Positions 421 through 63,909 of a stretch of DNA of 64,000 bases are shown here, one piece after another. The first letter of the stretch is position 1; each line of letters starts with the position of its first letter. Source of the DNA: a virus. Taxonomy: Duplodnaviria; Heunggongvirae; Uroviricota; Caudoviricetes. The notes below the pieces were generated by a model. The model saw only the letters and a program-made list of their open reading frames with translations, was not told where the DNA came from and did no database searches. The stretch lies in the IMG/VR virus record IMGVR_UViG_3300027710_001241, positions 16,620 through 80,619 of that record. One strand, written 5' to 3'. The translations under genes were made by a program, and so were the position numbers.

Positions 421-1011
421 TTATATATCTCCGCCTTTTGGAAGTTGTACTCTATATTCTTTTTTAAGAAAAGTACATCTAACCACCGTTTCAACCGAAA
501 GAAGCCTTCTTCTGTATAATATATCCCAATGATCTGAATAGAAAGTTTTATTTCTAGGATCAACAATGTATTCGTCAAAATAATCGTAACGTTCTGCGGC
601 TTCTTTACTAAATCCTAATTTTCGCATTAGCCTTGCTTGGCGAGAATTCATTACAGTAAAAAATTTTAATCTTCCCTTAGACTCATTGTATTCCATGATG
701 ACATCTAAGATATCTTTTAATAAAAAATTATTTCCAGAACTTCTTCCGGAGGTAAGATACCAACTAGCTTCATTTACACTTTCGTAAAATGATATAAATG
801 CATCTATTTTTTTTGTATCTTTGTTGTAAAAACCAAATGCATGATAATTTTTTAAATCAGTAAGATAGGTATCGCAAAATACATCATACAATTCTTTTTG
901 AAAATCTGGATCTTCAGTTGCAAAGTTAGTCGACCCCATATAGGTCTTCGTTAGAGTAAACAGATGTTTTATAGCATTTTTATGTTTTTTAGTTAGTTTA
1001 ATAATGCTCAT
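421..1011 (-). CDS. putative GNAT-type acetyltransferase
   Basis: ORF 196 aa; C-terminal RLMRKLGF-like acetyl-CoA binding motif; weak. Confidence 0.35.
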   Translation of the reverse strand: MSIIKLTKKHKNAIKHLFTLTKTYMGSTNFATEDPDFQKELYDVFCDTYLTDLKNYHAFGFYNKDTKKIDAFISFYESVNEASWYLTSGRSSGNNFLLKDILDVIMEYNESKGRLKFFTVMNSRQARLMRKLGFSKEAAERYDYFDEYIVDPRNKTFYSDHWDILYRRRLLSVETVVRCTFLKKEYRVQLPKGGDI

Positions 1012-1925
1012 AATTTTTTCCTTAGATGTTTGATTAATTCTTTGACAGGAATTCCATCTAAGGACGACGATTTCCTAGTAATTACATCTCTCTTTAAATT
1101 GTTATATGATTCTAAATTAAATCCTAATAGTCTTTCAAATCCATGTGTTTTAACTTTAACTCTTATAGAAGGGTAAAGTCGTTTTAATATTTCGTTCTTA
1201 CTGCTAACTGATGTAATCTTATAATTAAATCTGTTATTAACTAGGTCTTGAATAGCAGGATCTTCAAGGTAATACAGCATCATCTCAGGAGTATAACTAA
1301 ACCACTCATTAACTAACGGAATTTGAAATTTATTTGAGAATCTCATAGCACTAGCATCTTCATTCTCTCTAAAACAATGGTACCAATAACTGCCTTCTAG
1401 GCCAACATGTCTTCTTAAGAGTTGCTCTCCGCCCATTATAGAAGGCATTCCAAGTTTTTTAATATGATAATAGACAGTTAGATATGTTATTTGAGTACAA
1501 TCGATGTCTTGAGCAAACTCACTAGCCTCCCCTGACCAATAAAAATCTTTAACATCAAACTCGATTATTTCTAAATTCACCCCAAGTTCTTTTGCAATAG
1601 TCTGAGCTTCTAGCACATCGGGTAGATTATAATCGTCTTTGAATTTAATAGTAACACATCTTGGAGTGTGACCAATTTCAAGAAAATTTCTTAATACGAT
1701 TTCACTATCAGTGCCACCGCTGAGAAATATTACTAAATCTTTGCCAAACTCTGATAAAACACAATCGGCAGTTCTAAGTAGCTCGTTGTACCACGAGCTT
1801 TGTTTATATACTACAGGATCAGCCTGTCCGCAAGTTACATTATATTTTTCATGAGGTTCTTGCCTGTAACCAAATTCTCTTCCTCCTATTGTGTAGGATA
1901 GATGATTGTTGTAGGTAAAATTCAT
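1008..1925 (-). CDS. PP-loop ATP pyrophosphatase (asparagine-synthase-like amidotransferase family)
   Basis: LSGGTDSE PP-loop motif; 305 aa. Confidence 0.5.
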   Translation of the reverse strand: MNFTYNNHLSYTIGGREFGYRQEPHEKYNVTCGQADPVVYKQSSWYNELLRTADCVLSEFGKDLVIFLSGGTDSEIVLRNFLEIGHTPRCVTIKFKDDYNLPDVLEAQTIAKELGVNLEIIEFDVKDFYWSGEASEFAQDIDCTQITYLTVYYHIKKLGMPSIMGGEQLLRRHVGLEGSYWYHCFRENEDASAMRFSNKFQIPLVNEWFSYTPEMMLYYLEDPAIQDLVNNRFNYKITSVSSKNEILKRLYPSIRVKVKTHGFERLLGFNLESYNNLKRDVITRKSSSLDGIPVKELIKHLRKKL

Positions 1926-2161
1926 TATAGCATAATATCTAATAAGTCGCCTACTGTCTTTATAGGTTGTGTAGGATTAGAAGTAGTATTCCCAGTTTGT
2001 TCTTCGTATATCATTTGCAGTTCAACAATGTCAAGGCTATCTAATTTAAATGAAAATAGATTATCACTTTCTGATATAGTTAAGTTATTATTTTTGATAT
2101 GTTTTAATTCAGAAATTGCAGTTTTTAGAAATTCTAATTTTTCTGTTCTAGTTAGCATCAA
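1925..2161 (-). CDS. acyl/peptidyl carrier protein-like
   Basis: 78 aa with FKLDSLDIVEL phosphopantetheine-attachment-like motif; directly upstream of the PP-loop enzyme. Confidence 0.45.
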   Translation of the reverse strand: MMLTRTEKLEFLKTAISELKHIKNNNLTISESDNLFSFKLDSLDIVELQMIYEEQTGNTTSNPTQPIKTVGDLLDIML

Positions 2162-2230
2162 TGTTCCTTTTGTATTCGGTTACATATTATAGTGTACTAT
2201 TTATAACCTGGTCTTTAGGGGTTTAAAATT

Positions 2231-2743
2231 TTAAATCTGAGTAACTTCTATACCCGACTTTTCTAAGAATTTAATACCCGAATCGTCTCTATAAGCTGTG
2301 CCAAAATACACACGCTTAATCCCAGCCTGATAAACCAATTTGGCGCAATCCAAACAAGGAGCGTGAGTAATGAATATATCAGCACCGTTGCCACTGTTAA
2401 GGCTTCGGGCGAGTTTTGCAATAGCGTTTGATTCAGCATGTAATACCTCTGGTTTAGTTTTTAGGCGGTAGCGCCCCTGCATGATGTTCCCATCAGAGTC
2501 GAAATATGAACCCTCGTAAGGCCAACCTTTTTCTATCTCTTCCGGACTTAACCATCCACCTGCACTACACCATTCAACGTCTTCACAGTTATTATCCCAT
2601 CCTGCCGGCATACCGTTATAACCGTAACTAATAACTGAATCATCTTTTACAATAACAGCACCTACCTGTAGCCTTCGCGCATGGCTTAACTGAGCAGTAC
2701 GACTTGCCCAGTCCATGTATAATTTTATAAATTTATCTTTCAT
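2231..2743 (-). CDS. dCMP (deoxycytidylate) deaminase
   Basis: HAESNAI and PCLDCAKL zinc-binding motifs. Confidence 0.85.
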   Translation of the reverse strand: MKDKFIKLYMDWASRTAQLSHARRLQVGAVIVKDDSVISYGYNGMPAGWDNNCEDVEWCSAGGWLSPEEIEKGWPYEGSYFDSDGNIMQGRYRLKTKPEVLHAESNAIAKLARSLNSGNGADIFITHAPCLDCAKLVYQAGIKRVYFGTAYRDDSGIKFLEKSGIEVTQI

Positions 2744-3225
2744 TTAACTGCATTCCCATGTTCATCTAATTCCATCCAAGTATGGTCTCCCATATACTTT
2801 ACCTGTGCAACATATTTGTAACTATCTGGCACCCCGGTACTCCAATTAGTAGGACCATTAAAGACTAACAATGTTTTTTCTTTTCTTGTTTCCCAAACTA
2901 ACCAATAACAATGACCTAGTACAGGTTGAAAATTATATTCGGCAGCGTGTACAGCATCAGTGACTTCTAATCTACGTTTAATTTGTTGTGCTTGTTTTTC
3001 TAAAACTGCAACAAGTTCCATGATACGATCATACTCTTGCTGGGCATAAATCCTAGCATGATTAATCATTATATCTTTTTGTTTTGTAACAGGAACTAGA
3101 TCGAAATTAACCCCGCCCGCTTCTGTAGGATACTCACTAACATTTCTATTAAAGAAAGGAATCAACGAACCAGTAGATGTAGAATCATAACTAGTTCTAC
3201 CTTTGGCTGAATTTGATTTATCCAT
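2740..3225 (-). CDS. hypothetical protein
   Basis: ORF trimmed to internal ATG (AAGGA 7 nt upstream) because the listed N-terminus overlaps a tRNA. Confidence 0.4.
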   Translation of the reverse strand: MDKSNSAKGRTSYDSTSTGSLIPFFNRNVSEYPTEAGGVNFDLVPVTKQKDIMINHARIYAQQEYDRIMELVAVLEKQAQQIKRRLEVTDAVHAAEYNFQPVLGHCYWLVWETRKEKTLLVFNGPTNWSTGVPDSYKYVAQVKYMGDHTWMELDEHGNAVK

Positions 3226-3234
3226 TATTATCCT

Positions 3235-3309
3235 TGGCCGGTCCTGCAGGAATCGAACCCACACCGCTTGGTTCGAAGCCAAGCATTCTATCCATTGAAC
3301 TAAGGACCG
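3235..3309 (-). tRNA. tRNA-Arg(UCG)
   Basis: minus-strand cloverleaf: acceptor CGGTCCT/AGGACCG, anticodon loop CUUCGAA, T-arm GGGTTCGATTCC, CCA encoded. Confidence 0.8.
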
Positions 3310-3615
3310 TCATTTAGCAGTATTCATTTTAAGTAGGTACATGGTAACTTCCGGACCTTCTACAACTACTAAATCATTTGGATATTTATTTGTGCCAGTG
3401 TACCATTTACCGTGACTGCCTACTTCCCAAACTTTAACCATTTTAGGATTAAGTTTTTTAACGGTGCCTAATTCTAAACCATTATGATATGGGTAACAAA
3501 CTGCATCTCCCAACTTTAACACTCGCCCGAGTTTATCTTTATGTTCGACTACTTCCTTAGACATATCGTATTTCCTTAAATCCTTCTTCTTCAGAAGGCA
3601 TTTCAAAATTTTCAA
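3310..3615 (-). CDS. hypothetical protein
   Basis: ORF 101 aa; start uncertain (overlaps next gene). Confidence 0.4.
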   Translation of the reverse strand: MKILKCLLKKKDLRKYDMSKEVVEHKDKLGRVLKLGDAVCYPYHNGLELGTVKKLNPKMVKVWEVGSHGKWYTGTNKYPNDLVVVEGPEVTMYLLKMNTAK

Positions 3616-4018
3616 TCATTGCACTGACTACTGTCCATGGAATAGTTTTTCCCGGACGTCTCACTAATCTGTTTCTTAATTCAGCAAATGCCGGAGTCTC
3701 AAACACCACAGCAATATGCTCATAGTCTGGCAACATATTAAACTTTCGAGCACGACTTTTAACAGTGGTACTAGTTTGATCCCAGATAATATCTCGACCC
3801 ATTTCTCGCGCCGCAACTACTTCTTTGGCCATCAGGTCTACAGCAGTAGGCATGAAATCGTTGAACACTTCTGAATAGGTACGACCTACTTCTCTAGCAT
3901 AAAATTCAACCCACTTATCTGTGCTAACTTTTGCACAAGAAAAAGCCCAGGCCTGCTTATCTACCCAAGTAGATTTGCCGGACCCAGGCACTCCAATCAA
4001 TTGATAACACTTTGGCAT
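3557..4018 (-). CDS. P-loop kinase (AAA_33/polynucleotide-kinase-like)
   Basis: N-terminal Walker A GVPGSGKST; 153 aa. Confidence 0.55.
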   Translation of the reverse strand: MPKCYQLIGVPGSGKSTWVDKQAWAFSCAKVSTDKWVEFYAREVGRTYSEVFNDFMPTAVDLMAKEVVAAREMGRDIIWDQTSTTVKSRARKFNMLPDYEHIAVVFETPAFAELRNRLVRRPGKTIPWTVVSAMIENFEMPSEEEGFKEIRYV

Positions 4019-4137
4019 ATTATACCACCTCTACAATATGATATCCTGAATTAGGATAAGTTTCTATTAACCATTCCAACATGCCCGGTTCAACGGGCAG
4101 TCGGATGGAATCGTACTTGTTAGTAATATATATCATA

Positions 4138-4743
4138 TTACATTGTTGGACCGTTGCCATTACGAAAACCTATGCTACCACCTTCAGCTTCGATGTTCTT
4201 AATAACATCTTCGAATAAGATAGGAGCAAAGTCCGGAGTCTGCTCTACGCAAACACAATGGTAACGAACATCGTTCTCATCGCTGTATAAAACTTCTCCA
4301 GTCCTCGCATCTACACCACGAGCCTTCTTCACGCGATTTGCGTGTAAGTGTCCATGAATGTTAACACCAAACCGTCCCATTGAATCACTGTGTAACGGAA
4401 TGTGGCTTAAGATCATTCCGTTCATAACATGGTATGCTCGTAACTCTCTAAAGTACATTCTGTACTCGTCATCACGGAAGATGTCGTGGTTACCGCGGAT
4501 TAAGACCTTGTCGCCGTTTAAGCGACTTATGATGCTTAATGCCTTACGGTTAATAACAACATCGCCTAAGTGATAGACCTTGTCAGTAGGCTTAACTCTT
4601 TCGTTCCAAGCCTTGACCATAGCTTCGTCCATTTCTTCAGGACTATCCCACGGGCGTAACTTTGTAACACCATCGTTACGTGTGAAGCGGCAGACGCCGG
4701 TATGTCCGAAATGCGTGTCGCTTACTAAAAATACACTAGGCAT
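4138..4743 (-). CDS. calcineurin-like metallophosphoesterase
   Basis: DTHFGH ... GNHD motifs. Confidence 0.8.
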   Translation of the reverse strand: MPSVFLVSDTHFGHTGVCRFTRNDGVTKLRPWDSPEEMDEAMVKAWNERVKPTDKVYHLGDVVINRKALSIISRLNGDKVLIRGNHDIFRDDEYRMYFRELRAYHVMNGMILSHIPLHSDSMGRFGVNIHGHLHANRVKKARGVDARTGEVLYSDENDVRYHCVCVEQTPDFAPILFEDVIKNIEAEGGSIGFRNGNGPTM

Positions 4744-4757
4744 CTTGCCCTCCTTTC

Positions 4758-4985
4758 TTAAATTCTTTCTTTTTGTACACGGCCAATACGGCCTGCTTTG
4801 TCCCAGTCATAGGCAACACCATCTGGGCACTTACCATCCACTACAGCGTCAACTCCAAACATACCGCACACTTCGAAGTTTGGACCTTTAATGGTTACAA
4901 ACTCATTCATATGCTTGGCAAGATTCATTGCTTCAGCAAGTGTAAGAACCTTAAACGATTCTTCTTTTCCTATTACATTATACAT
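4758..4985 (-). CDS. hypothetical protein
   Basis: ORF 75 aa in operon context. Confidence 0.4.
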   Translation of the reverse strand: MYNVIGKEESFKVLTLAEAMNLAKHMNEFVTIKGPNFEVCGMFGVDAVVDGKCPDGVAYDWDKAGRIGRVQKERI

Positions 4986-4991
4986 TCTTTC

Positions 4992-5186
4992 CTAACATTC
5001 TAAATCTAAATTCTTACCTTTGTCTGCATCTAGACGACGATTTCTTTCTACTCGTTCTGCTACAACTTGATCAAAGTTTCTTTTCTCAACGACCTTGCGA
5101 TAATCTTCTTCTCGCTTTCTTTGAATATTGGTTTGTTCTAAATTGTAGTCACGAATACGACATTGGTCAGCTTTTGAAATATTCAT
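4992..5186 (-). CDS. hypothetical protein
   Basis: ORF 64 aa. Confidence 0.35.
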   Translation of the reverse strand: MNISKADQCRIRDYNLEQTNIQRKREEDYRKVVEKRNFDQVVAERVERNRRLDADKGKNLDLEC

Positions 5187-5743
5187 ATATCACCTTCGCG
5201 CTCTCTGCGAGCTTTTCTTTCTTTGGCCAGAGTAAAGACTTTCTCATTGTCATTGGCCCACTCAATTTCTTTAGGAAGGATGATCCCAAACTCAGTTGTT
5301 ACACCGTTGATAGTATGGGGCTCATCCGGATCGTAGGTCCAACCTAGTGCCTTCATCATGCGATGCTTGACAAGCAGGTTGGGACTACGAAACGCTTCAG
5401 TGTCATCAAAGCCCAGCATAACGCCGAGCTCACAGACTGCACCACTACGGCATACACCTGCATGACAATGAACAATCACGTTCATGCGATTTGCCAGTGC
5501 ATGTTGCAATAGTCGAACAAGCTCGTTGGCCTGCTCCTGACTGCATTTCATTGTTTCTTCTAGTACTTCATCTTTTTCTTCAACATCAAGAAATTTAAAT
5601 TGATGTACTTCTTTAAAGGTATATAAAGGTGTAGGGTACTGCATGTCTGGATCCACAATCTGAATCAGCATAGCGTTCTCACCGGGATTAATGTGCATCC
5701 CTCTTTTGATGTCGCTGAGCGCAACGTTTTGAATCCATGGCAT
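5183..5743 (-). CDS. protein tyrosine / dual-specificity phosphatase
   Basis: HCHAGVCRSG CX5R active-site loop; start placed at internal ATG with AAGGAA SD. Confidence 0.7.
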   Translation of the reverse strand: MPWIQNVALSDIKRGMHINPGENAMLIQIVDPDMQYPTPLYTFKEVHQFKFLDVEEKDEVLEETMKCSQEQANELVRLLQHALANRMNVIVHCHAGVCRSGAVCELGVMLGFDDTEAFRSPNLLVKHRMMKALGWTYDPDEPHTINGVTTEFGIILPKEIEWANDNEKVFTLAKERKARREREGDI

Positions 5744-5753
5744 ACTATTTCCT

Positions 5754-5978
5754 TTATCTAATTCCGAACAATACATTGCCGGCTTCCCTATCAAAAGGAA
5801 CTCCGTAATCAGCAATGAATTGTGCATCTACCTTTTCGTTTTGGCCTTTGCCCACTCCAATATAATATTTGTAGTTAGCTTCTCCAGTTTGACGATATTC
5901 TTCAATCTCGTGTTCTTGTACAATTTGTACAATGCCGATACATTCGTTACCAGCAAACCAAATGCTTCCTGTAATCAT
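5754..5978 (-). CDS. hypothetical protein
   Basis: internal ATG with AAGGAG SD chosen. Confidence 0.4.
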   Translation of the reverse strand: MITGSIWFAGNECIGIVQIVQEHEIEEYRQTGEANYKYYIGVGKGQNEKVDAQFIADYGVPFDREAGNVLFGIR

Positions 5979-5988
5979 TATTTGCTCC

Positions 5989-6279
5989 TTACCAACGATT
6001 TGCGTTATCAATTTCTTCTTGCGTAAACTGTCCACCACTACGATCTGGGTTGTCACGCCACGATTGTTCTACATCCTTTGCGACACAAGATTCCACATCC
6101 TGCAAGATACGCCGGAGTTCTTCAATGTTGACTTTCAAAAACTCAACAGTAGCAAGAATAGCCATATTCTCGCCGCCACTTGTTCCTGCACTTTGGAGAT
6201 ACTTGGTATGTGAAGCCAGCATTGCTTCCTTGCCGGCGATTGTGTTTTTCAGATTGTCACGGACGGTGTAGATGCTCAT
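5989..6279 (-). CDS. hypothetical protein
   Basis: ORF 96 aa. Confidence 0.4.
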   Translation of the reverse strand: MSIYTVRDNLKNTIAGKEAMLASHTKYLQSAGTSGGENMAILATVEFLKVNIEELRRILQDVESCVAKDVEQSWRDNPDRSGGQFTQEEIDNANRW

Positions 6280-6394
6280 TTCAGCAATCCTTTGTAATAT
6301 TGATACAGGCCCAAGATTTGGTTCCAGTCACGTGGATGACCACAGTTTAGGTTTCGTCTGTAGTATTCCACTTGGCTACGGATAAACTCTTGGC

Positions 6395-6634
6395 TCATTC
6401 TTCAACTCCGAAATGTTCCTTCAATTCTTCAGCAATCTGTGGTCGGGTAGCGTATTCTACACTTGAATCTAATACTGTGTCAATACATTCCTTGACAATC
6501 AACTCGGCGAACTTTTCAATCTTATCATCCCACAACTCTACAGATTCTATATGTTGAACAGGATTACTTGCTAAATTTCGCATAGAAATATGTCCGCCCG
6601 CCTGTTTAACAAGTTCTTTAGTTCGTTCGTTCAT
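6395..6634 (-). CDS. small protein of the MNERxKEL...FAELIVxEC...HFGVEE paralog family
   Basis: start at MNERTKE; paralogs at 47216 and 47915. Confidence 0.5.
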   Translation of the reverse strand: MNERTKELVKQAGGHISMRNLASNPVQHIESVELWDDKIEKFAELIVKECIDTVLDSSVEYATRPQIAEELKEHFGVEE

Positions 6635-6710
6635 AACAAATCCTCCGGGCAAGGCGTTCTTACCATATCAACGATAACATACACCCACAATAAAAAATAC
6701 AAATATTCAA

Positions 6711-7109
6711 TCATTCTACTGCCCTTCTAAAAATAAGTTCTTGTTTTGAAAACGCATCTTGTTCCCACGGCATGTCTAAGTACTTGGTTTTCTTGCTGTA
6801 CTTCTTACCACGCCAGTAATTAATACCATTCTCAACTTTAAGGATACCTTTGGCCATTTGTCGTACATGCACCATTTCGTGTGCAAGTGTTACACCCATG
6901 TCAGCAAACCAACCTGGCTTAACAACTACAACATAGGCATCTAAACCATCTAAGGGCATGGTCATACCATGACCATCACATTCATTAGCTACTCTAACTA
7001 GGAGAACTTTTTTACTGTTCTCCAGTTTGAGTTGTTTAATCATAGAGGGCAAAATCGCCTCTATGAATTTACGTTTTTTGGCACTACGGGTTTCTACAAG
7101 AAATTCCAT
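6711..7109 (-). CDS. putative zinc metallopeptidase (HExxH)
   Basis: HEMVH motif. Confidence 0.4.
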   Translation of the reverse strand: MEFLVETRSAKKRKFIEAILPSMIKQLKLENSKKVLLVRVANECDGHGMTMPLDGLDAYVVVVKPGWFADMGVTLAHEMVHVRQMAKGILKVENGINYWRGKKYSKKTKYLDMPWEQDAFSKQELIFRRAVE

Positions 7110-7971: not shown

Positions 7972-8020
7972 ATATTACCTTTGAAGTTTAAAATTTAATT
8001 ATAACAGGTTCTCATTTTTT

Positions 8021-8075
8021 GTGCTACCACTACACCAACACAGTTGACCAAACTGTGCCCAGGATTCGAACCTGG
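8021..8075 (-). ncRNA. tRNA-like fragment: T-arm plus 3' acceptor immediately followed by a complementary 5' acceptor/D-arm half (permuted order)
   Basis: minus reads CCAGGTTCGAATCCTGG GCACAGT TTGGTCA ACTGTGT TG GTGTAGTGGTAGCAC; no anticodon arm. Confidence 0.3.
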
Positions 8076-8136
8076 CCCGTCTTTTTTACAGAAAGATTTA
8101 ATAAGATTGCTGAAAAGAACCTAAATAGTCAATTGG

Positions 8137-9460: not shown

Positions 9461-9767
9461 ATACTTTACTAAAACAAACTAAGGTATATTAAAAAGGTAT
9501 GACTATGTCAAAGAGCTTCCCGGGATACCAAACCTGATCTTTTTAGGGATTTAAATTTGTTTTAATAAAGTGTCTAGCTACTCTCACCACAAGAGCCCTA
9601 GACTGAGCAGTTACTCTGTCCACTAGCCTTTCCATTTAGACGGTGCTTAGGTCCGCCTTTGTGATTTCTCAAGTCGCCTTAAATGGGCCTTGCGGTAGAT
9701 CCAATGCACCGTGCTGTTAAGGTGTAGCAATTACCTAACTCTGTTACGCTGAGTTAACGCGGGTTAT

Positions 9768-9841
9768 TGGTGCCCCTACACAGAATCGAACTGCAAATTA
9801 CGGATTACAAAACCGTCGTTATACCATTTAACTATAAGGGC
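9768..9841 (-). tRNA. tRNA-Thr(UGU)
   Basis: acceptor GCCCTTA/TAGGGGC, anticodon loop UUUGUAA, T-loop TTCGATT. Confidence 0.7.
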
Positions 9842-9851
9842 TTTAATCTAT

Positions 9852-10100
9852 TTAACTGCTTTGAGCAGTGAAGGTAGTTCCGGGAGGAGGACTTACCTTA
9901 CCGTCAGCATGCCGAGTCCAACCTGACGGAGTATCCGGTGCTTTTGCTTGATTTGAATTAGCAATTCTTTCAAACTCTTCATCTTCATGTTCAGCATCGT
10001 CTTTTATCCGAGGATCGGGCTTACGAAAAATTGCATCGAAGTTATTGGCAAATTGTTCTTGACTGACGCTATATGGTCTAGGGCTACTACCTTTTGACAT
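9852..10100 (-). CDS. hypothetical protein
   Basis: start at internal ATG with AAAGGA SD. Confidence 0.4.
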   Translation of the reverse strand: MSKGSSPRPYSVSQEQFANNFDAIFRKPDPRIKDDAEHEDEEFERIANSNQAKAPDTPSGWTRHADGKVSPPPGTTFTAQSS

Positions 10101-10110
10101 TTTTATCCTT

Positions 10111-10692
10111 TCATTTAACGAAATGGTACCAACCATTTATAATATATTTCTCTTCGGTCTGCGATGGTATTCCACGATGTGTAAATGTCCAATCGGCAGG
10201 CCAAATCATTGTTAATCCTTTTTCAGGTTTAACTTTTATTCCTTGGTGAAAAAATTCAGTTTCACCTTGATCTTGAATATCGTTTAAGTATGTTAAAAAT
10301 ACTAGATGTCTTGCACCCCTGGGCATTTGACAAGTTACTCGTTCTGTATGCCAAGCATGAAACGCACTACCTTTATTATACTTCTTTATTGTAAAACCTT
10401 CTGCAATAGCCCAAGCACCGTACTCGTTGCACTTTGGATATTTCTTAACATATTCTTTGGTTATCTCAGTTAACCAATTAACATATTTTATGAAAATACC
10501 ACCGGGTGCAGGATCAACATAACAGTCTAAACTATCTTTAATAGATAAGTCAATAACTTTATTGCCATGGCCGCCTTGTACAATGTTATCACTGTCTTGA
10601 TGAAATTTAATTAACTCGTCGCAAAAATCAACATCATCGTGATACCAGCCACTAATAAAATTATTTAAACTATTAATCGAATGTTCACGCAT
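10111..10692 (-). CDS. 2OG-Fe(II) oxygenase (prolyl-4-hydroxylase-like)
   Basis: listed ORF N-terminus is actually tRNA-Asn; real start MREHS; HxD...H-type jelly-roll region. Confidence 0.5.
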   Translation of the reverse strand: MREHSINSLNNFISGWYHDDVDFCDELIKFHQDSDNIVQGGHGNKVIDLSIKDSLDCYVDPAPGGIFIKYVNWLTEITKEYVKKYPKCNEYGAWAIAEGFTIKKYNKGSAFHAWHTERVTCQMPRGARHLVFLTYLNDIQDQGETEFFHQGIKVKPEKGLTMIWPADWTFTHRGIPSQTEEKYIINGWYHFVK

Positions 10693-13329: not shown

Positions 13330-13358
13330 ATTATAGCAGAATATTTATATTCTGTCAA
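13330..13358 (-). promoter_or_regulatory. sigma70 consensus promoter driving the tRNA array
   Basis: rc reads GGTTGACA GAATATAAATATTCTGC TATAAT. Confidence 0.65.
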
Positions 13359-13593
13359 CCTACATTATTAAATTTGTTAAAGTAGTGCTACCATCGTTAT
13401 AAGCACCATTCACCTGTGTAATAAACTCGAGCAGGACTCGGTACGTTACTTGGGATAGATCCAGATGATACCCACTGTATGCCGATCCCATTCAAGCGAT
13501 CAGCCGGGCAACGAACCCGCATCCTTTTACTATATCGGTAGTTCGAACATACCTTTATAGCGTGACTTCTCTTGCTAACACTCTAACAAAACT

Positions 13594-13683
13594 TGGTCCC
13601 GCAGTGAGGAATCGAACCCCATCCTGGACCTTATCTAGATTAATCGGATATAAGCCGACCTGCTCTCCTTGAGCTACTGCGGG
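13594..13683 (-). tRNA. atypical 90-nt tRNA-like gene (anticodon loop CUUAUAU, i.e. UAU by my fold; long variable region)
   Basis: acceptor CCCGCAG/CUGCGGG A CCA, T-arm UGGGGTTCGATTCCUCA, anticodon stem GUCGG/CCGAU. Confidence 0.4.
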
Positions 13684-13691
13684 AAAAACTT

Positions 13692-13767
13692 TGGCGTCCC
13701 TAGGGGGATTCGAACCCCCGTACTCACCGTGAAAGGGTGATGTCCTAGGCCTCTAGACGATAGGGAC
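13692..13767 (-). tRNA. tRNA-Glu(UUC), copy 1
   Basis: acceptor GUCCCUA/UAGGGAC; anticodon arm UCACC CUUUCAC GGUGA; T-arm GGGGGTTCGAATCCCCC. Confidence 0.85.
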
Positions 13768-13775
13768 ATTTAAAA

Positions 13776-13943
13776 CCATTAATTGATAGCACTCACAGTC
13801 TATGACGACGAGCGAATTTCTGAGTGAGGTGCTTCCTCTCATAAGCCATTGCTGTGGTTGTGTTAGGACTGATCGATGGCCCGACCAGCCCGCCTAGTAT
13901 ATGCGTCCATATACGATACCCACTGAATGCTATCAATTAATGG
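13776..13943 (-). ncRNA. structured ~168-nt RNA candidate closed by a perfect 16-bp terminal helix
   Basis: CCATTAATTGATAGCA at 13776-13791 is the exact reverse complement of 13928-13943; internal hairpins GUAUAUG/CAUAUAC, CUGGUCG/CGAUCAG, GAGG/CCUC; no ORF. Confidence 0.4.
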
Positions 13944-14025
13944 TGCTCGGACCCGGAATCGAACCGGGATGCCTTTCGGCGAGAGATTTTAAGTCTCTTG
14001 TGTCTACCTATTTCACCATCCGAGC
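13941..14025 (-). tRNA. tRNA-Leu(UAA), class II
   Basis: acceptor GCUCGGA/UCCGAGC, anticodon arm AGAGA CUUAAAA UCUCU, long variable arm, T-arm CCGGTTCGATTCCGG. Confidence 0.85.
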
Positions 14026-14107
14026 AAATATCAAATTATTTTTTAAAGAACAATGTTAATTGCTTAACGTATGCTATTATTATAGCGCCTTTTTCTTTGC
14101 TTGTCAA

Positions 14108-14337: not shown

Positions 14338-14413
14338 TCAAATAAACAGGATGCTTTTTTACGGTTTTGATTAAAAGTCAAATGTATAAAGTTTGCTGAA
14401 CGCATCCTAAAAC
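14338..14413 (-). repeat. inter-tRNA structured spacer element, copy 1
   Basis: AACAGG-arm-...GTTTGCTG...-arm'-CCTAAAACTGG with outer stem AGGATGC/GCATCCT and inner hairpin TTTGA/TCAAA. Confidence 0.5.
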
Positions 14414-14657: not shown

Positions 14658-14732
14658 TGGTGGTAAAGGAGGGACTCGAACTCTCACTGGGCACCGTATG
14701 AAGGTGTTGCACTACCATTATGCTACATTACC
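14658..14732 (-). tRNA. elongator tRNA with CAU anticodon (Met or lysidine-Ile2)
   Basis: D-arm GCATAATGGTAGTGC; anticodon loop UUCAUAC; single mismatches in acceptor and T stems. Confidence 0.65.
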
Positions 14733-14740
14733 ATATCAAA

Positions 14741-14823
14741 GTACACTTACCAGAATCGAACTGGTGACCAGAGCACCGCTCCAGCTATACTCCACATAAC
14801 GGCCTAGCCTCAGCCGCAGTGTA
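14741..14823 (-). tRNA. tRNA-Ser(GGA), class II, acceptor helix extended to 16 bp by flanks
   Basis: anticodon arm GUUAU GUGGAGU AUAGC; variable hairpin GGAGC-GGT-GCTCT; T-arm ACCAGTTCGATTCTGGT; 16-bp perfect inverted repeat 14731-14746/14819-14834. Confidence 0.65.
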
Positions 14824-14831
14824 CTTTGATA

Positions 14832-14905
14832 TGGTAGGGGTGCTCGGGAACGATCCGAGTTTTACTGGTTAAAAGCCAGTTACTTCACCTTAAAGTTTCA
14901 CCCCC
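14832..14905 (-). tRNA. tRNA-Lys(UUU)
   Basis: anticodon arm ACUGG CUUUUAA CCAGU; unusual T-loop ATCGTTC. Confidence 0.7.
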
Positions 14906-15093: not shown

Positions 15094-15166
15094 AATAAAA
15101 CAGGATACTGTTTGCTTTTCACAGCCAAAAGTGAAATATTTTGGTTTGCTGTAAGTATCCTAAAAC
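15094..15166 (-). repeat. inter-tRNA structured spacer element, copy 2
   Basis: same framework; outer stem AGGATACT/AGTATCCT, inner hairpin TTTCAC/GTGAAA. Confidence 0.5.
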
Positions 15167-15241: not shown

Positions 15242-15310
15242 AAAATAAAACAGGTTCCGCTTTTTTCATTATGCTTGAAATAATTAAGTTTGCTGAAAGG
15301 AACCTAAAAC
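15242..15310 (-). repeat. inter-tRNA structured spacer element, copy 3
   Basis: outer stem AGGTTCC/GGAACCT, inner hairpin TTTCA/TGAAA. Confidence 0.5.
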
Positions 15311-15984: not shown

Positions 15985-16059
15985 TGGTGGAGGCCGAGGG
16001 AATCGAACCCTTCTAGACATCTTCCTTGCAAGGGAAGACCGTAGCCCACTACTGCCCCC
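15985..16059 (-). tRNA. tRNA-Ala(UGC), short D-loop
   Basis: anticodon arm CUUCC CUUGCAA GGAAG; acceptor GGGGGCA/GGCCUCC. Confidence 0.6.
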
Positions 16060-16073
16060 AATAAAATCTTTGC

Positions 16074-16147
16074 TGTACATCTAGGGATCGAACCTAGCTC
16101 ATTCTTCGTTAACAGCGAAGCGCCTACACCATGCTTGCTCATGTACA
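16074..16147 (-). tRNA. tRNA-Asn-like (GUU), copy 2, poor D-stem, acceptor extended to 13 bp by flanks
   Basis: anticodon arm CUUCG CUGUUAA CGAAG; T-arm CTAGGTTCGATCCCTAG; inverted repeat CTTTGCTGTACAT/ATGTACAGCAAAG at 16068-16080/16141-16153. Confidence 0.45.
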
Positions 16148-16369
16148 GCAAAGATCTCAATGATAAAAGGAATACACGGCGCCCTAAGACGAACTACTGT
16201 CCCCACGAGCTTCTGTCCTTCAACAGCATCACCGCCAACAACACTTTTCTTACCCCTACTGGACCGACTTACTCTCGCATCGTCACCCACCTCATATGTA
16301 GTGAAGCCCACGCAGTCGCACATGGGTCGGTTTCCGTCTACTCATCTTACTAAGTGTTGTCTTAGTATT

Positions 16370-31907: not shown

Positions 31908-33971
31908 TCACTTTGATGTAGCTCTGTAAGTACCATCCCAATCTGCAGGTAGATTTCTAGTTCTCATATCAGCAATGCGCTCAATCCACAATTCGTAGTA
32001 ATGATCCATCTTGCCGTCAAACTCGCCGGTAAGTTCCTGACATAGTGTAACGGCCTTGTCCCACTCTTGTTTGCGATAGTATTCTAACATTAGTTCATGA
32101 TGTTCTCTAGCTGAGAACCAATCTGCTGCCACAGTGACATCTGGATTGTAGAACACTGTAAAGATGTTAACACCAACATCCTTACCTTTAACTGCAATAC
32201 AATCTAACGGAATAGTAAAGTAGTTGTCACCTACACGGGCTTGTGTAAATTCACTGATAATGATCAATACGCCATAGTTCTTAGTCTGTCCTTCTAAGCG
32301 AGCTGTTAAACTAACCGAGTCACCTAGAACGTCATAACCAAAGCGGTCTTTACTACCAATGTTACCAATCAGTGTAGGACCAGTGTTGATACCAAGTCCG
32401 CAACCTACTAAGGGCTTGCCTTCTTTGGTAAGTTCAATGTTAAACAGTTCAACAGCGTGTAACATTTCTAGTCCAGTGCGAACAGCAGCTAACACATGAT
32501 CTGGATCTTGTTCTTCTTGAATAGGAGCACCGTGGACGTGCAATGACGCATCTCCGATGAACTTGATCAAACAACCATTGTTGCGTAAAATAGGTTCTGC
32601 AATAGCAGTCATGTAACGATTCATTATTGCTGTGAACGCTACAACGTCATCGCCGTAAGTTTCACCTAGACCTGTAAAGTTACGCATGTCACTCATAATA
32701 ACTGTAAGGTCTTTCTTCTCACCACCTAGTTTAATAAAGCTAGGATCTTTCTGTAAGCGTTCGACAATAACAGGATTAACATAGCTACCGAACTGTTTCT
32801 TAATCTGTGACTTTTGGAAAAACTCATCTAAGAATTTTACTGTGTAAGCATGAAGAGCAACGAGGATAATTCCAAGGGTGAAAACAGTAGTATCAAATAA
32901 CATATGAAACCCACTATAAGCGTACATACTAGCGAATACGCTACTAACAGCCAATACAACCATTGTCGCAATTCCGACATACATCCACCTTGTTAAAAAT
33001 AATAATAGTGCGCCTGCAATAACAAGAGCCAATATCTCAGCCTGATCAGCCCACTCAGGGCGCTGAATAGTTGTACCACTTAGCATTGTTCCCATAGCGG
33101 CAGCTTGTAGATCCTGCGGCCATATTTCTCCCTTGCTAGTAGCAATAGGCTGTACTAGACCTGCGGCACTAACGCCTACAATAACTATCTCGCCTTTAAA
33201 AGATTCTGGTAGTTCGACTAGACTATGTTGTTGCGGTGTTGCACTCCAATCGATCCAAACACGACTTATTCCGTCTGTAGGTATCTTACCAAACTTAGGA
33301 ATACGTAGAGCCTCTACGCCCATTTCTCCAATCTTAATTTGGAAGTTCTTATCCTTGGCAGCTACACGTAGAGTTTCTAATGCCAGACTGGGATACAAAT
33401 GCTCTTGACTGTAAATGACTAGAGGTGTTCGGCGAACAACACCATCAATCTCTGGAAAGGTATTAACAATACCTACACCTGCTGCTCGTTCTCCTAGCAT
33501 ATCTACGTTACTAATCAATCCAGGATATTCAACAACCATACCTTCGGGATCTAATCCAATGATAGCTGCAGGACTTCCGTGTGCTGTATTCTTAGAAGTC
33601 ATACTACCTAGACTAGGCAGGATTACTGGATATTGTTCTAAAGTACGTGCTAGTACAGGGTCTTGTTTAAACCTGTCTTTTTCAGGCATTAATATATTAA
33701 AAACGACTAATCCAGCTTCTCTTTTGTAGAGTTCTTTAATAATATCTGCATAAATGTCACGACTAAAAGGGTATTGGCCGTACTTGTCTAATGCCGCTTC
33801 ATCTATGTTAACTGTATGTACAGGGATATCTTTGGCAGGTTGGCCGGTAACCAATTGATCAAAATAACGTAGTCTCACAGACTCTACAAAACTTGGATCA
33901 GCGAATCGAACACCTACTATTAAGGCAAGTGTTACTATAGCCAGCCAGGGGCTTAATAATATTTTTTTCAT
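31908..33971 (-). CDS. CHASE2 sensor domain – class III adenylate/guanylate cyclase
   Basis: N-terminal signal/TM, periplasmic domain, TM cluster, C-terminal cyclase domain (KFIGDA...). Confidence 0.7.
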   Translation of the reverse strand: MKKILLSPWLAIVTLALIVGVRFADPSFVESVRLRYFDQLVTGQPAKDIPVHTVNIDEAALDKYGQYPFSRDIYADIIKELYKREAGLVVFNILMPEKDRFKQDPVLARTLEQYPVILPSLGSMTSKNTAHGSPAAIIGLDPEGMVVEYPGLISNVDMLGERAAGVGIVNTFPEIDGVVRRTPLVIYSQEHLYPSLALETLRVAAKDKNFQIKIGEMGVEALRIPKFGKIPTDGISRVWIDWSATPQQHSLVELPESFKGEIVIVGVSAAGLVQPIATSKGEIWPQDLQAAAMGTMLSGTTIQRPEWADQAEILALVIAGALLLFLTRWMYVGIATMVVLAVSSVFASMYAYSGFHMLFDTTVFTLGIILVALHAYTVKFLDEFFQKSQIKKQFGSYVNPVIVERLQKDPSFIKLGGEKKDLTVIMSDMRNFTGLGETYGDDVVAFTAIMNRYMTAIAEPILRNNGCLIKFIGDASLHVHGAPIQEEQDPDHVLAAVRTGLEMLHAVELFNIELTKEGKPLVGCGLGINTGPTLIGNIGSKDRFGYDVLGDSVSLTARLEGQTKNYGVLIIISEFTQARVGDNYFTIPLDCIAVKGKDVGVNIFTVFYNPDVTVAADWFSAREHHELMLEYYRKQEWDKAVTLCQELTGEFDGKMDHYYELWIERIADMRTRNLPADWDGTYRATSK

Positions 33972-62456: not shown

Positions 62457-62693
62457 TCAATACATTTTTTTAGGTAGGCTTTGGTCTCTGAGTTTCTTTT
62501 GCCAACGACTTTTGGCTGCTCCTGCTCTACGCTTTCGGACAGTAGTTGGCTTTTCGTAGAACATTTTGGCTCTCAGTGTTTCCAAAATTCCAGAATCATC
62601 TACTTTTTGTTTAAATTTTCTCAGTGCTACGTTCAACGGCAGGTCGCCTACGATAACCTTATTACCCATTAGTGCTTTGTTGTTTTTGCTCAT
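62457..62693 (-). CDS. rpsU: ribosomal protein S21
   Basis: VALRKFKQ ... [12 protein letters not shown] matches bS21; listed ORF uses TTG, ATG at 62693 preferred (start could be further in). Confidence 0.7.
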
Positions 62694-63909
62694 TTTTCTT
62701 TTTATCAAAAATCATAATGGCTGGTTTGCCATCAACGGTATCTTTACTTATGCGAATTGACTTCAAACCGCGTTCGACGAGATCTACAGCATCAAACTGA
62801 TAGGGCATTAAGATCTTTTCGATAATGTTTTTAAGTCCGCGAGCATTGGTTTTGAGATCTTTGGCTCGTTTTGCAATTTCATGTAAGGCATCTTGATCAA
62901 AACTTAGATTAATGCCATCTAACTCAAACATATATTGATACTGCTTGATCGTGCTGTTTTTAGTATCTACGAGAATTTTTACAAGTTGATCTTCACTGAG
63001 TTCATCTACGTTAGTAATCAATCCAAAGCGACCCACGAATTCAGGAATAAGTCCAAACTTGATAAGATCCTTGGTTGTCACTTCTTGTAGCAAAGCTGGA
63101 TTATCTTCTACGTTGTCTACATTAGCATGGAAGCCTACACTTCTAGCACCTGTACGTTGTTTGATAAGTTTGTCAATGCCTACAAAGGCGCCGCCGCAGA
63201 TAAACAAGATACTACGAGTATCAATCTCCTGCATATCACTGCCCGGGTGTTTGCGTTTACTAGTAGACGGCACTCTCATAATGCTGCCTTCGATCATCTT
63301 TAGCAGGGCTTGTTGCACACCTTCTCCGCTGACATCTCGGGTGATACTAGCACTTTCGCCCTTACGGCTGATCTTGTCGATTTCATCAATGTAGACAATA
63401 CCTCGAGCTGCTTTTTCCATATCTCCGTCTGCTTCATTGATCAAACGAGTAAGAATACTTTCTACATCATCACCGACGTAGCCTGCCTCTGTAATACCAG
63501 TAGCATCACATATAGCAAAGGGTAGATCTAGGTATTCGGCAATCTTACGTGCCATCATTGTTTTGCCACAGCCAGTAGGACCTAACAATAATACATTGGT
63601 TTTTTCTAGCTCAATGTCTTTACTGGGATTATTAATGCGTTTAAAATGCTGGCTAACTGCCACACTTAGTGCAATCTTAGCATCATCTTGACCTATAACA
63701 TAATCGTCTAGGTACTCTTTTATTTTAACGGGGTTTAGTAGTTTAAGTGTATTAGGAAAAGTTTTTACTTTTTCATCTTTGAGTATATCAATACAAAGCT
63801 CTACACAATCATTACAAATGGCAGCGTGATCGCCGACAATTAACTTTTCCACATCCTCTTTGCTTTTGTTGCAAAAATCACACTTGTGGTCTGTTTCCGA
63901 TTTTGTCAT
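62662..63909 (-). CDS. clpX: ATP-dependent Clp protease ATP-binding subunit ClpX
   Basis: N-terminal C4 zinc finger (CDFCNKSK ... CNDCVE), Walker A GPTGCGKT, full AAA+ domain. Confidence 0.95.

Follow-up and report, generated by a model that had tools for sequence, protein, structure and literature searches.

The window analyzed here is a 64-kb stretch (64,000 nucleotides [nt]) of an uncultured tailed-phage genome, IMG/VR record IMGVR_UViG_3300027710_001241, and it includes a large tRNA array, whose 33 tRNA genes identified by ARAGORN are without exception encoded on the minus strand. Between two of these genes, tRNA-Leu(UAA) and tRNA-Glu(UUC), lies an element of 168 nt that we read from position 13943 to position 13776, the minus strand being taken as the functional one because all 33 tRNAs of the array are encoded on it. 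The element is almost certainly a genuine structured RNA gene of a new family. That it specifies a stable, highly structured noncoding RNA of an undescribed family, carried as a mobile array cassette by mostly freshwater uncultured phages, is the interpretation that we regard as probable. The immediate surroundings are as follows.

14079 to 14107, minus strand: predicted sigma-70-type promoter (TTGACA-17-TATAAT), a 12/12 match to the consensus, upstream of tRNA-Leu(UAA)
13941 to 14025, minus strand: tRNA-Leu(UAA), immediately upstream of the RNA, its CCA end lying inside the closing helix P1
13776 to 13943, minus strand: the whole RNA (fold z = -6.9; 163.9 bits and E = 1.8e-32 with covariance model R1)
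13692 to 13767, minus strand: tRNA-Glu(UUC), 8 nt downstream of the RNA

A previous sequence-only reading of the window had proposed a structured minus-strand RNA within the phage tRNA cluster, with a long terminal helix around several hairpins, and our analysis confirms this description. The two 16-mer arms on which the proposal was built (13776 to 13791 and 13928 to 13943) are exact reverse complements, and a repeat search extended them to arms of 21 nt (13775 to 13795 and 13924 to 13944) that are 95% complementary. The window contains just three inverted repeats with arms of 16 nt or more and a spacing of up to 300 nt, all of them inside the tRNA array; by our own arithmetic, about 0.002 perfect 16-bp repeats at such spacing are expected per window. 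Folding of the minus strand gave a minimum free energy of -67.4 kcal/mol (z = -6.9), a value equaled by 0/200 shuffled sequences, while the fold of the plus strand was weaker (-55.1; z = -3.7). The closing helix reaches 20 bp, pairing RNA positions 1 to 20 with 149 to 168, and its first three bases (CCA, 13943 to 13941) double as the 3′ CCA of tRNA-Leu(UAA), an overlap that had been overlooked. The three hairpins named earlier are all present in the predicted fold, and compensatory changes preserve each of them in related sequences, GUAUAUG/CAUAUAC corresponding to P3, CUGGUCG/CGAUCAG to part of P4, and UGAGAGG/CCUC-AC-UCA to P5. The interior had also been described as free of canonical tRNAs and of open reading frames (ORFs). 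Neither ARAGORN nor Rfam calls a tRNA in 13776 to 13940, in agreement with the former; as to the latter, an ORF of 18 codons (AUG GCU UAU...) does exist, although the segment is noncoding, with UAG at the third codon in many relatives.

Model R1 finds a single copy of the RNA within the window. A candidate second copy at 13467 to 13477, where the sequence CAGUGGGUAUC recurs, was rejected (region z = -1.6; no match to model R1). The stretch around it, the 230 nt that follow tRNA-Ile (13360 to 13593, minus strand; z = -1.6), shares CAGUGGGUAUC with the RNA and contains the T-arm-like fragments GGUAUGUUCGAACUACC and CGGGUUCGUUGCCCG; it may represent decayed tRNA genes.

Family members were gathered by exact-pattern scans, which divergent subfamilies escape. 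An exact interior 26-mer retrieved eight IMG/VR contigs, and the alignment of these eight at once showed compensatory changes. The relatives with compensatory changes in the terminal helix that the sequence-only reading had suggested looking for were thereby found. With a second pattern, GCAATGGCTTANGA…TCNRAAAT, placed in another conserved stretch, 71 viral loci were recovered, 67 of which are true members. A third pattern, applied to metagenomes, returned 120 loci, 69 of them true (58, then 11 more); the pattern spanned 40 to 42 nt in every true metagenome member, and the remaining matches (~40%) were chance matches in coding DNA, recognized by eye and with the model. Among bacterial genomes there were three pattern matches and one true member, on a 7.5-kb contig of a Crocinitomicaceae metagenome-assembled genome that is probably phage DNA binned along with it. 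In total, IMG/VR and metagenome contigs, the majority of them of lake origin, yielded ~90 distinct family sequences, with 91 model matches aligned and one RNA copy per locus. The larger contigs that carry the RNA include IMGVR_UViG_3300017917_002434 (270 kb) and 3300021963_004854 (172 kb).

The fold is strongly supported by the pattern of substitutions across this family. Model R1 was built from 38 sequences with a hand-assigned structure. In the 90 distinct sequences, 93.2% of pair cells are paired, compared to 36 to 43% when the 3′ partners are slid by 1 to 3 columns; 44/53 modeled pairs, distributed across P1 to P6, show changes on both sides, and the covariation score is 0.49 versus 0.15 after shuffling, with 0/500 shuffles reaching the observed values. 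These figures come from an alignment fitted to the model, which favors the structure; an independent MAFFT alignment of the 38 sequences nevertheless gave 92.3% paired cells against no more than 45% for slid partners, and both-side changes in 30/53 pairs. The structural elements, from the 5′ to the 3′ end of the RNA, are listed below.

13924 to 13943, minus strand: P1, 5′ strand (RNA positions 1 to 20); 19/20 pairs with both-side changes, 95.7% of cells paired
13920 to 13923, minus strand: P2, 5′ strand (GUGG), with no unpaired bases after P1; 4/4 pairs covary, 95% paired
13915 to 13919, minus strand: J2/3 (GUAUC), a junction strand; G25 and A27 invariant, C29 at least 90% conserved (alignment A1)
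13897 to 13914, minus strand: P3 hairpin (GUAUAUG-GACG-CAUAUAC); 6/7 pairs covary, 97 to 100% of cells paired
13866 to 13891, minus strand: P4 hairpin, 10-bp stem with loop GGCCAU; 10/10 pairs change on both sides between subfamilies
13876 to 13880, minus strand: 5′ strand of the predicted pseudoknot (GCCAU), in the P4 loop; invariant
13858 to 13865, minus strand: J4/2 (UAACACAA; family consensus UGAnAnAA); conserved columns in alignment A1
13854 to 13857, minus strand: P2, 3′ strand (CCAC), pairing with GUGG
13845 to 13849, minus strand: 3′ strand of the predicted pseudoknot (AUGGC), part of the invariant GCAAUGGCUUA that lies just 3′ of P2
13821 to 13841, minus strand: P5 hairpin (UGA-GAGG-AAGCA-CCUC-AC-UCA), 3 + 4 bp; 5/7 pairs covary
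13811 to 13820, minus strand: J5/6 (GAAAUUCGCU), conserved single strand RAAAUYCGC; AAAU invariant (alignments A4 and A1)
13798 to 13806, minus strand: P6 (GUC-AUA-GAC), a small variable hairpin
13776 to 13795, minus strand: P1, 3′ strand (RNA positions 149 to 168), ending 8 nt before tRNA-Glu

In this architecture, P1 is stacked on P2, which opens into a three-way junction with P3 and P4, while P5 and P6 form a 3′ side domain. The P1 duplex measures 18 to 21 bp and is nearly perfect in all full-length members; it is partly conserved in sequence (U4, U5, A11, G14, A16, and U18) and frequently contains G-U pairs (GC in 42 and GU in 25 sequences at one pair). Because G-U pairs become A-C mismatches on the opposite strand, the fold is strand specific, which indicates an RNA rather than a DNA cruciform. 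The GACG loop of P3 is near-invariant (G37, A38, C39, and G40 invariant in alignment A1). P4 differs in register between classes (73 to 90% of cells paired) and has a wholly different stem in different subfamilies, GGCGGGCUGGUC… in one and GAGGAAUAGG… in another. P5 combines a conserved 2-nt AC bulge with a variable loop, and its basal pair is U-A in 41 and G-C in 47 sequences. At the P6 site, 70/90 sequences can form a hairpin with 3 bp or more, with differing stems, and 16, belonging to one subclass, lack the segment. About 60 core nucleotides are invariant or near-invariant. The complementarity between GCCAU in the P4 loop and AUGGC downstream of P2 is present in 88 to 89 of the 90 sequences, and RNAalifold prefers this pairing.

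At E ≤ 10, the window copy has no match among the families of Rfam 15, and the window scanned at gathering thresholds gave tRNAs only. In 13 further loci scanned at E ≤ 5, nothing overlaps the RNA, the matches elsewhere being to tRNAs and GOLLD. BLAST searches against 50,697 deposited phage genomes returned tRNA matches only for the region and nothing for a consensus-like family member, and a search for related loci anchored on the neighboring methyltransferase gave no relatives. Literature searches turned up only analogues, i.e., the T4 stable RNAs, GOLLD/ROOL, Y RNAs, and theta ribozymes. In both fold and sequence, the RNA matches nothing curated or deposited among the databases searched, and we regard it as a new RNA class in a known niche.

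That niche is a tRNA slot in the array. All tRNAs lie on the strand of the RNA in 67/67 viral loci. The upstream tRNA overlaps the RNA by 3 to 4 nt, through its CCA end, in 24/67, and a downstream tRNA follows within 15 nt in 37/67, with 3 to 15 nt left between the end of many copies and the following tRNA. The upstream flank is truncated in many loci. Most of the overlapping tRNAs are Leu(UAG) or Leu(UAA), with Glu or Tyr in some cases. In the window, the next perfect promoter match after that at 14107 to 14079 is found at 13358 to 13330, and the transcript starting from the former is likely to comprise tRNA-Leu, the RNA, tRNA-Glu, and tRNA-Ile. The last of these, tRNA-Ile(UAU) (13594 to 13683, minus strand), measures 90 nt and has a variable arm of ~19 nt, unusual for an Ile tRNA, and tRNAs of this type recur in related arrays.

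The RNA is patchily distributed. Among 79 loci anchored on the neighboring metallophosphoesterase (90 to 97% identical), four carry it, and among loci with a full 10-kb upstream flank it is present in 3/17. The arrays are strongly shuffled, and in many of them another tRNA follows tRNA-Leu(UAG) after 5 to 9 nt. Absence from related genomes, with the flanking tRNAs simply juxtaposed, had been put forward as evidence that would speak against an RNA gene. This situation does obtain in most related arrays, but it does not refute the gene, because individual tRNA genes show the same pattern of gain and loss; the RNA is an accessory cassette.

Two other places in the array of the window show long closing stems. 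At 14729 to 14836 (minus strand), there is a second long-stem cassette (z = -5.0), whose perfect 19-bp closing helix begins at the ACCA end of tRNA-Lys(UUU). The 70 nt inside this helix resemble a tRNA and include a T-arm (ACCAGUUCGAUUCUGGU), but neither ARAGORN nor Rfam calls a tRNA here. At 16059 to 16162 (minus strand), complementarity flanking the tRNA-Asn(GUU) that ARAGORN places at 16072 to 16147, and that the Rfam tRNA model does not call at its gathering score, lengthens the acceptor stem to ~19 to 22 bp.

The tRNA island of the window (421 to 7109) encodes an AAA_33 (PNK-like) kinase, a metallophosphoesterase, a DSP-type phosphatase, a dCMP deaminase, a PP-loop ATPase, and several 2OG-Fe(II) oxygenases. 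Related islands add an RNA polymerase omega-like protein, and in many of them a Ro-like gene lies within a few kilobases. With the kinase, the metallophosphoesterase, the phosphatase, and the PP-loop enzyme, the surroundings of the RNA are rich in genes for RNA-end healing and tRNA-related functions. The healing enzymes are equally common in arrays without the RNA. The sole gene enriched beside it encodes an unannotated protein of 191 amino acids (aa), found in 39/134 RNA-positive versus 4/75 RNA-negative loci (~10-fold). This protein, probably a coiled coil, has no Pfam or PHROG match and is absent from the window; in 17 loci its gene lies ~200 nt upstream of the RNA in the same orientation, separated from it by a GC-rich spacer of 200 nt that looks conserved and structured. 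Examples of the gene are found at 440 to 1015 in locus L025, 1292 to 1864 in L026, and 2146 to 2724 in L046, with 35 other loci besides.

GOLLD (RF02032, 187 to 216 bits) is found in the same arrays as the RNA in at least eight loci, often with an embedded tRNA, at the following positions.

L051: GOLLD at 539 to 1004
L164: GOLLD at 75 to 540
L039: GOLLD at 4861 to 5326
L058: GOLLD at 3511 to 3974
L040: GOLLD at 9676 to 10136
L332: GOLLD at 3723 to 4187
L024: GOLLD at 2405 to 2867
L041: GOLLD at 9799 to 10261

The two RNAs are spaced by 0.24 to 2.6 kb; which of them comes first varies, and tRNAs frequently intervene. In three loci GOLLD lies 240 to 540 nt downstream with no tRNA between. The Rfam scan did not find GOLLD in the window. 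Elsewhere the window carries unusual cargo on the minus strand, namely, a CHASE2-adenylate/guanylate cyclase (31908 to 33971), a full-length DnaK/Hsp70 (44707 to 46620), and a ClpX-like ATPase (62662 to 63909), which fits a very large phage genome, with relatives on contigs of 200 to 375 kb.

From these data a maturation route can be proposed that we consider reasonably probable. The RNA would be cotranscribed with tRNA-Leu, tRNA-Glu, and tRNA-Ile from the promoter at 14107 to 14079. Its 3′ end would be set by the RNase P cut at the 5′ end of tRNA-Glu, followed by exonuclease trimming back to P1, and its 5′ end by maturation of the upstream tRNA at its CCA. Since this CCA is base-paired as part of P1, with no single-stranded spacer after it, cleavage of the 20-bp duplex by RNase III would make an attractive first step. 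P1 would then shield both RNA ends from exonucleases, and the GCCAU-AUGGC pseudoknot would lock a compact core. This conserved core may act in trans, most likely as a protein-binding platform or decoy; a specific trans function, be it binding or catalysis, is preferred over that of a mere stem because of the ~60 conserved core positions and the pseudoknot. The setting would be a tRNA-supply/RNA-repair island, with its PNK-like kinase, phosphoesterases, Ro-like protein, and sometimes GOLLD, and such hypervariable islands would be where counter-defense functions accumulate. A trans-acting role in protein binding or counter-defense is a tentative suggestion on our part. Speculative, and doubtful at present, is that the RNA founds a new class of phage noncoding RNAs with a biochemical activity of its own, either a CCA-end ribozyme or a decoy disabling a host RNA-targeting defense or RNA-quality-control protein, traded as a cassette with tRNAs and GOLLD.

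Several points weigh against the interpretation of the element as a stable, processed RNA with a function of this kind. The transcript, both its termini, and its stability are deduced from sequence, and so is the pseudoknot, both strands of which are invariant, so that covariation cannot support it. The link to a CCA end is not universal, some copies instead following a protein gene at ~200 nt or a promoter at ~60 nt. The counter-defense idea draws solely on the neighborhood and the patchy distribution, and the 191-aa protein may be a mere lineage marker, with no specific partner indicated.

The sequence-only reading had likened a long stem around a multihairpin body to the architecture of Y RNAs, pointing to a Ro60 gene in the window. 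That gene is indeed there. The ORF at 51632 to 53029 (minus strand) encodes a protein with DUF2828 and DUF7788, assigned to phrog_850 ("RNA-binding protein"), for which AlphaFold gave a model of moderate confidence (predicted local distance difference test [pLDDT], 72; predicted template modeling score [pTM], 0.67). Over its full length, the model best matches three PDB entries, two for the Thermus phage phiLo TROVE/Ro60 protein (9kop and 9l5y) and one for Deinococcus radiodurans Rsr (2nvo); the Ro-like protein gave no sequence-level PDB match and no TROVE Pfam match. Its family is very abundant, numbering >7,900 relatives, and the contigs that carry them reach 375 kb. The RNA could on these grounds be conceived as the Y RNA partner of the Ro60-like protein, the long stem being bound and the RNA tethering an effector such as PNPase. 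The long, partly sequence-conserved stem formed by the 5′ and 3′ ends would agree with this, as would eight loci in which the RNA lies 2 to 10 kb from a same-strand Ro-like gene and the report that phage Ro60 proteins bind phage-encoded Y-like RNAs (PMC12135203). Yet no hallmark of a Y RNA was found, the Ro gene is distant, and linkage is lacking. Y RNAs carry GNCGAA/CGAA by the stem, the Ro/Rsr site, and mimics of T- and D-arms (PMC4201824, PMC12135203). In all members of the present family, GNCGAA(N0-1)G/CGAA is absent from the 5′ stem, which is unbulged, and CGAA occurs only in the variable P5 loop or in J5/6 of some members; there is no T-loop/D-loop consensus and no tRNA-clan match inside the element. 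Neither RF00019 (Y_RNA) nor RF02553 (YrlA) matches 13776 to 13943 at E ≤ 10, and the weak YrlA matches in the 13 further loci (21 to 25 bits, against a gathering score of 69) miss the RNA. Known Y RNA genes share the strand of the Ro gene and are no more than 4 kb from it (PMC4201824), whereas 37.7 kb separate the two in the window. At least 26/29 Ro-positive tRNA-island loci lack the RNA within ~10 kb, and four Ro-positive contigs of 207 to 353 kb have no copy at all. Ro-like genes are not enriched near the RNA relative to tRNA islands at large; among loci of at least 12 kb, a Ro-like gene is present in 5/26 RNA-positive versus 18/33 RNA-poor tRNA-island loci. Since the Ro-like gene also has different linked RNA modules of its own (see below), we consider a Y RNA identity very unlikely. 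A likeness that we presumed between GGCUGGUC...GAUCAGUC of P4 and the stem of human Y1 was discarded, as it is lost in relatives, where the stem covaries freely (e.g., GAGGAAUAGG/CUUACUCCUC).

If the element acted only in cis, its 20-bp duplex would serve as a cleavage site for RNase III that separates tRNA-Leu from the downstream tRNAs, and the interior would be devoid of any trans function. Long stems flank 16S and 23S rRNAs as RNase III sites, and T4 species 1 RNA was reportedly cut by RNase III in vitro, in work attributed to Paddock and colleagues (1976). Cleavage of the P1 stem by this enzyme would be plausible, a processing stem of this type calling for a duplex of ~20 bp or more, as P1 with its 18 to 21 bp provides; the nearly perfect duplex recurs in all full-length members, its start on the upstream CCA leaves no single-stranded spacer for RNase E, and the two further long stems in the array enclose tRNA-like bodies. 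A processing site would not, however, need ~60 conserved interior nucleotides, five further covarying helices, and a conserved loop-strand complementarity, and most related arrays manage without the RNA, with tRNAs 5 to 9 nt apart, so that a purely cis-acting element appears unlikely. A ribozyme that matures the adjacent tRNA, through self-cleavage at CCA|U or in an RNase P-like manner, is suggested by the 24 loci in which the RNA begins exactly at the tRNA 3′ end, by conserved junction nucleotides and a pseudoknot typical of small ribozymes, by the kinase and phosphoesterases of healing type nearby, and by the precedent of theta ribozymes beside phage tRNAs (PMC10879173). Against this, no Rfam ribozyme family matches, and many members have no upstream tRNA; the healing enzymes, as noted, are no rarer in RNA-free arrays. 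The 5′-terminal 20 nt pair with the 3′-terminal 20 nt and not with an internal strand, so that the topology of ribozymes resembling that of hepatitis delta virus (HDV) is not reproduced. The latter topology is a nested double pseudoknot, and such ribozymes cleave at their own 5′ end. The tRNAs concerned encode their CCA, and a 2′,3′-cyclic phosphate on A76 would block charging, while 95% of the tRNAs adjoining theta ribozymes lack an encoded CCA (PMC10879173). We regard such a ribozyme as quite improbable.

Hard to sustain, too, is a small functional relative of GOLLD/ROOL that would form an RNA particle, either by self-assembly (through the self-complementary GGCC of the P4 loop or a pseudoknot in trans) or together with GOLLD. 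GOLLD and ROOL are cage-forming phage RNAs near tRNA islands (PMC12286853), GOLLD shares arrays with the RNA in at least eight loci (lying only 240 to 540 nt downstream, with no intervening tRNA, in three), and the invariant GCCAU/AUGGC could pair equally well between molecules. The window, though, has the RNA and no GOLLD, tRNAs separate the two in several loci, and the GOLLD model (RF02032) does not match the RNA; we judge this alternative highly improbable. For similar reasons (intervening tRNAs, varying order, and occurrence without GOLLD), the RNA was rejected as part of the variable 5′ region of GOLLD. Finally, terminal inverted repeats of 16 to 21 bp and presence or absence among closely related arrays would be expected of an element acting at the DNA level, such as a miniature inverted-repeat transposable element (MITE)-like insertion or a tRNA-adjacent recombination site. 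The flanks were read and no target-site duplication was seen; the G-U pairs are strand specific, and compensatory changes are found in the interior hairpins as well. Because the element is present in a single copy per locus, keeps the tRNA-strand orientation in 67/67 viral loci, and covaries, a MITE can be regarded as excluded.

Other identities were considered and rejected. ARAGORN and RF00005 find no cloverleaf with T and D arms, which disposes of a tRNA or tRNA-like molecule. The stretch ACAG..GGCUUA, which we took to resemble CR-V of RNase P RNA, occurs in the wrong helix order, the 3′ strand of the pseudoknot following P2 here and preceding P2 in RNase P. The candidate hammerhead core reads CUUAUGA, not CUGAUGA.

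The RNA modules linked to the Ro-like gene are distinct from the 168-nt RNA. A repeated module, UUUUAGG-N4…YUNCAGCAA…N4′-CCUGUUUUAUUU, fills in three copies the conserved 490-nt noncoding leader of the gene (53042 to 53506, minus strand). Four more CAGCAA modules each follow a tRNA CCA end (15252 to 15305, 15102 to 15161, 14348 to 14408, and 8006 to 8122, minus strand). Among related loci, sense modules number 49 in 29 Ro-positive loci versus 4 in 50 Ro-negative loci, over an antisense background of 3 and 3, and their distances upstream of the start codon of the Ro-like gene are fixed. In Rfam the modules gave only weak matches, to Dicty_Class_I_RNA. They are probably true Y-like partners or a cis-regulator of the Ro-like protein and are better Y-like candidates than the 168-nt RNA.

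Phage tRNA arrays are now viewed as islands for counter-defense and translation takeover, and their non-tRNA RNAs (T4 species 1 and 2, GOLLD, and ROOL) have remained without an assigned function after decades. All members of the family described here come from uncultured phages, and their function is read from context only. With a compact RNA of ~165 nt, clear boundaries, a probable pseudoknot, and ~90 variants, the function of an array-embedded RNA could become directly testable, its size being suited to chemical probing, crystallography or cryo-electron microscopy, pulldowns, and in vitro cleavage tests. Separating the RNA from the Ro60-like system exposed the Ro-linked RNA modules, which constitute a second lead.

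Compared with known systems, the RNA shares with theta (HDV-like) ribozymes a position directly 3′ of phage tRNA genes; it differs from them in helix topology, in the absence of an Rfam match, in the encoded CCA of its tRNAs, and in its host phages, from lakes instead of the gut. Minimal HDV-like ribozymes are also far smaller. With Y RNAs (YrlA, Yrn1, and phiLo Yrl1/2) it has in common a long end-pairing stem around a structured body and a Ro60-fold gene in the genome, but the motif, the tRNA-like domain, and the Ro linkage are absent, and its 168 nt exceed the 80 to 130 nt of those characterized. GOLLD and ROOL occupy the same genomic niche near tRNA islands and likewise have complex, strongly covarying folds with pseudoknots, yet they measure 600 to >800 nt, against 150 to 170 nt here, and neither RF02032 nor ROOL matches the RNA. 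The likeness to the stable RNAs of phage tRNA clusters that the sequence-only reading had drawn fits by context. T4 species 1 (rnaC) and species 2 (rnaD) are non-tRNA stable RNAs of 119 to 139 nt, arranged head to tail with the tRNAs of a phage cluster at 1 and 6 nt from their neighbors, and they adjoin tRNA-Arg in a similar way. There is no similarity in sequence or structure, the best score of model R1 in the T4 region being 10 bits. Whereas rnaC carries a tRNA-like T-arm (CCGGGUUCGAAUCCCGG), the new RNA has none and combines instead a predicted pseudoknotted core with a 20-bp closing helix.

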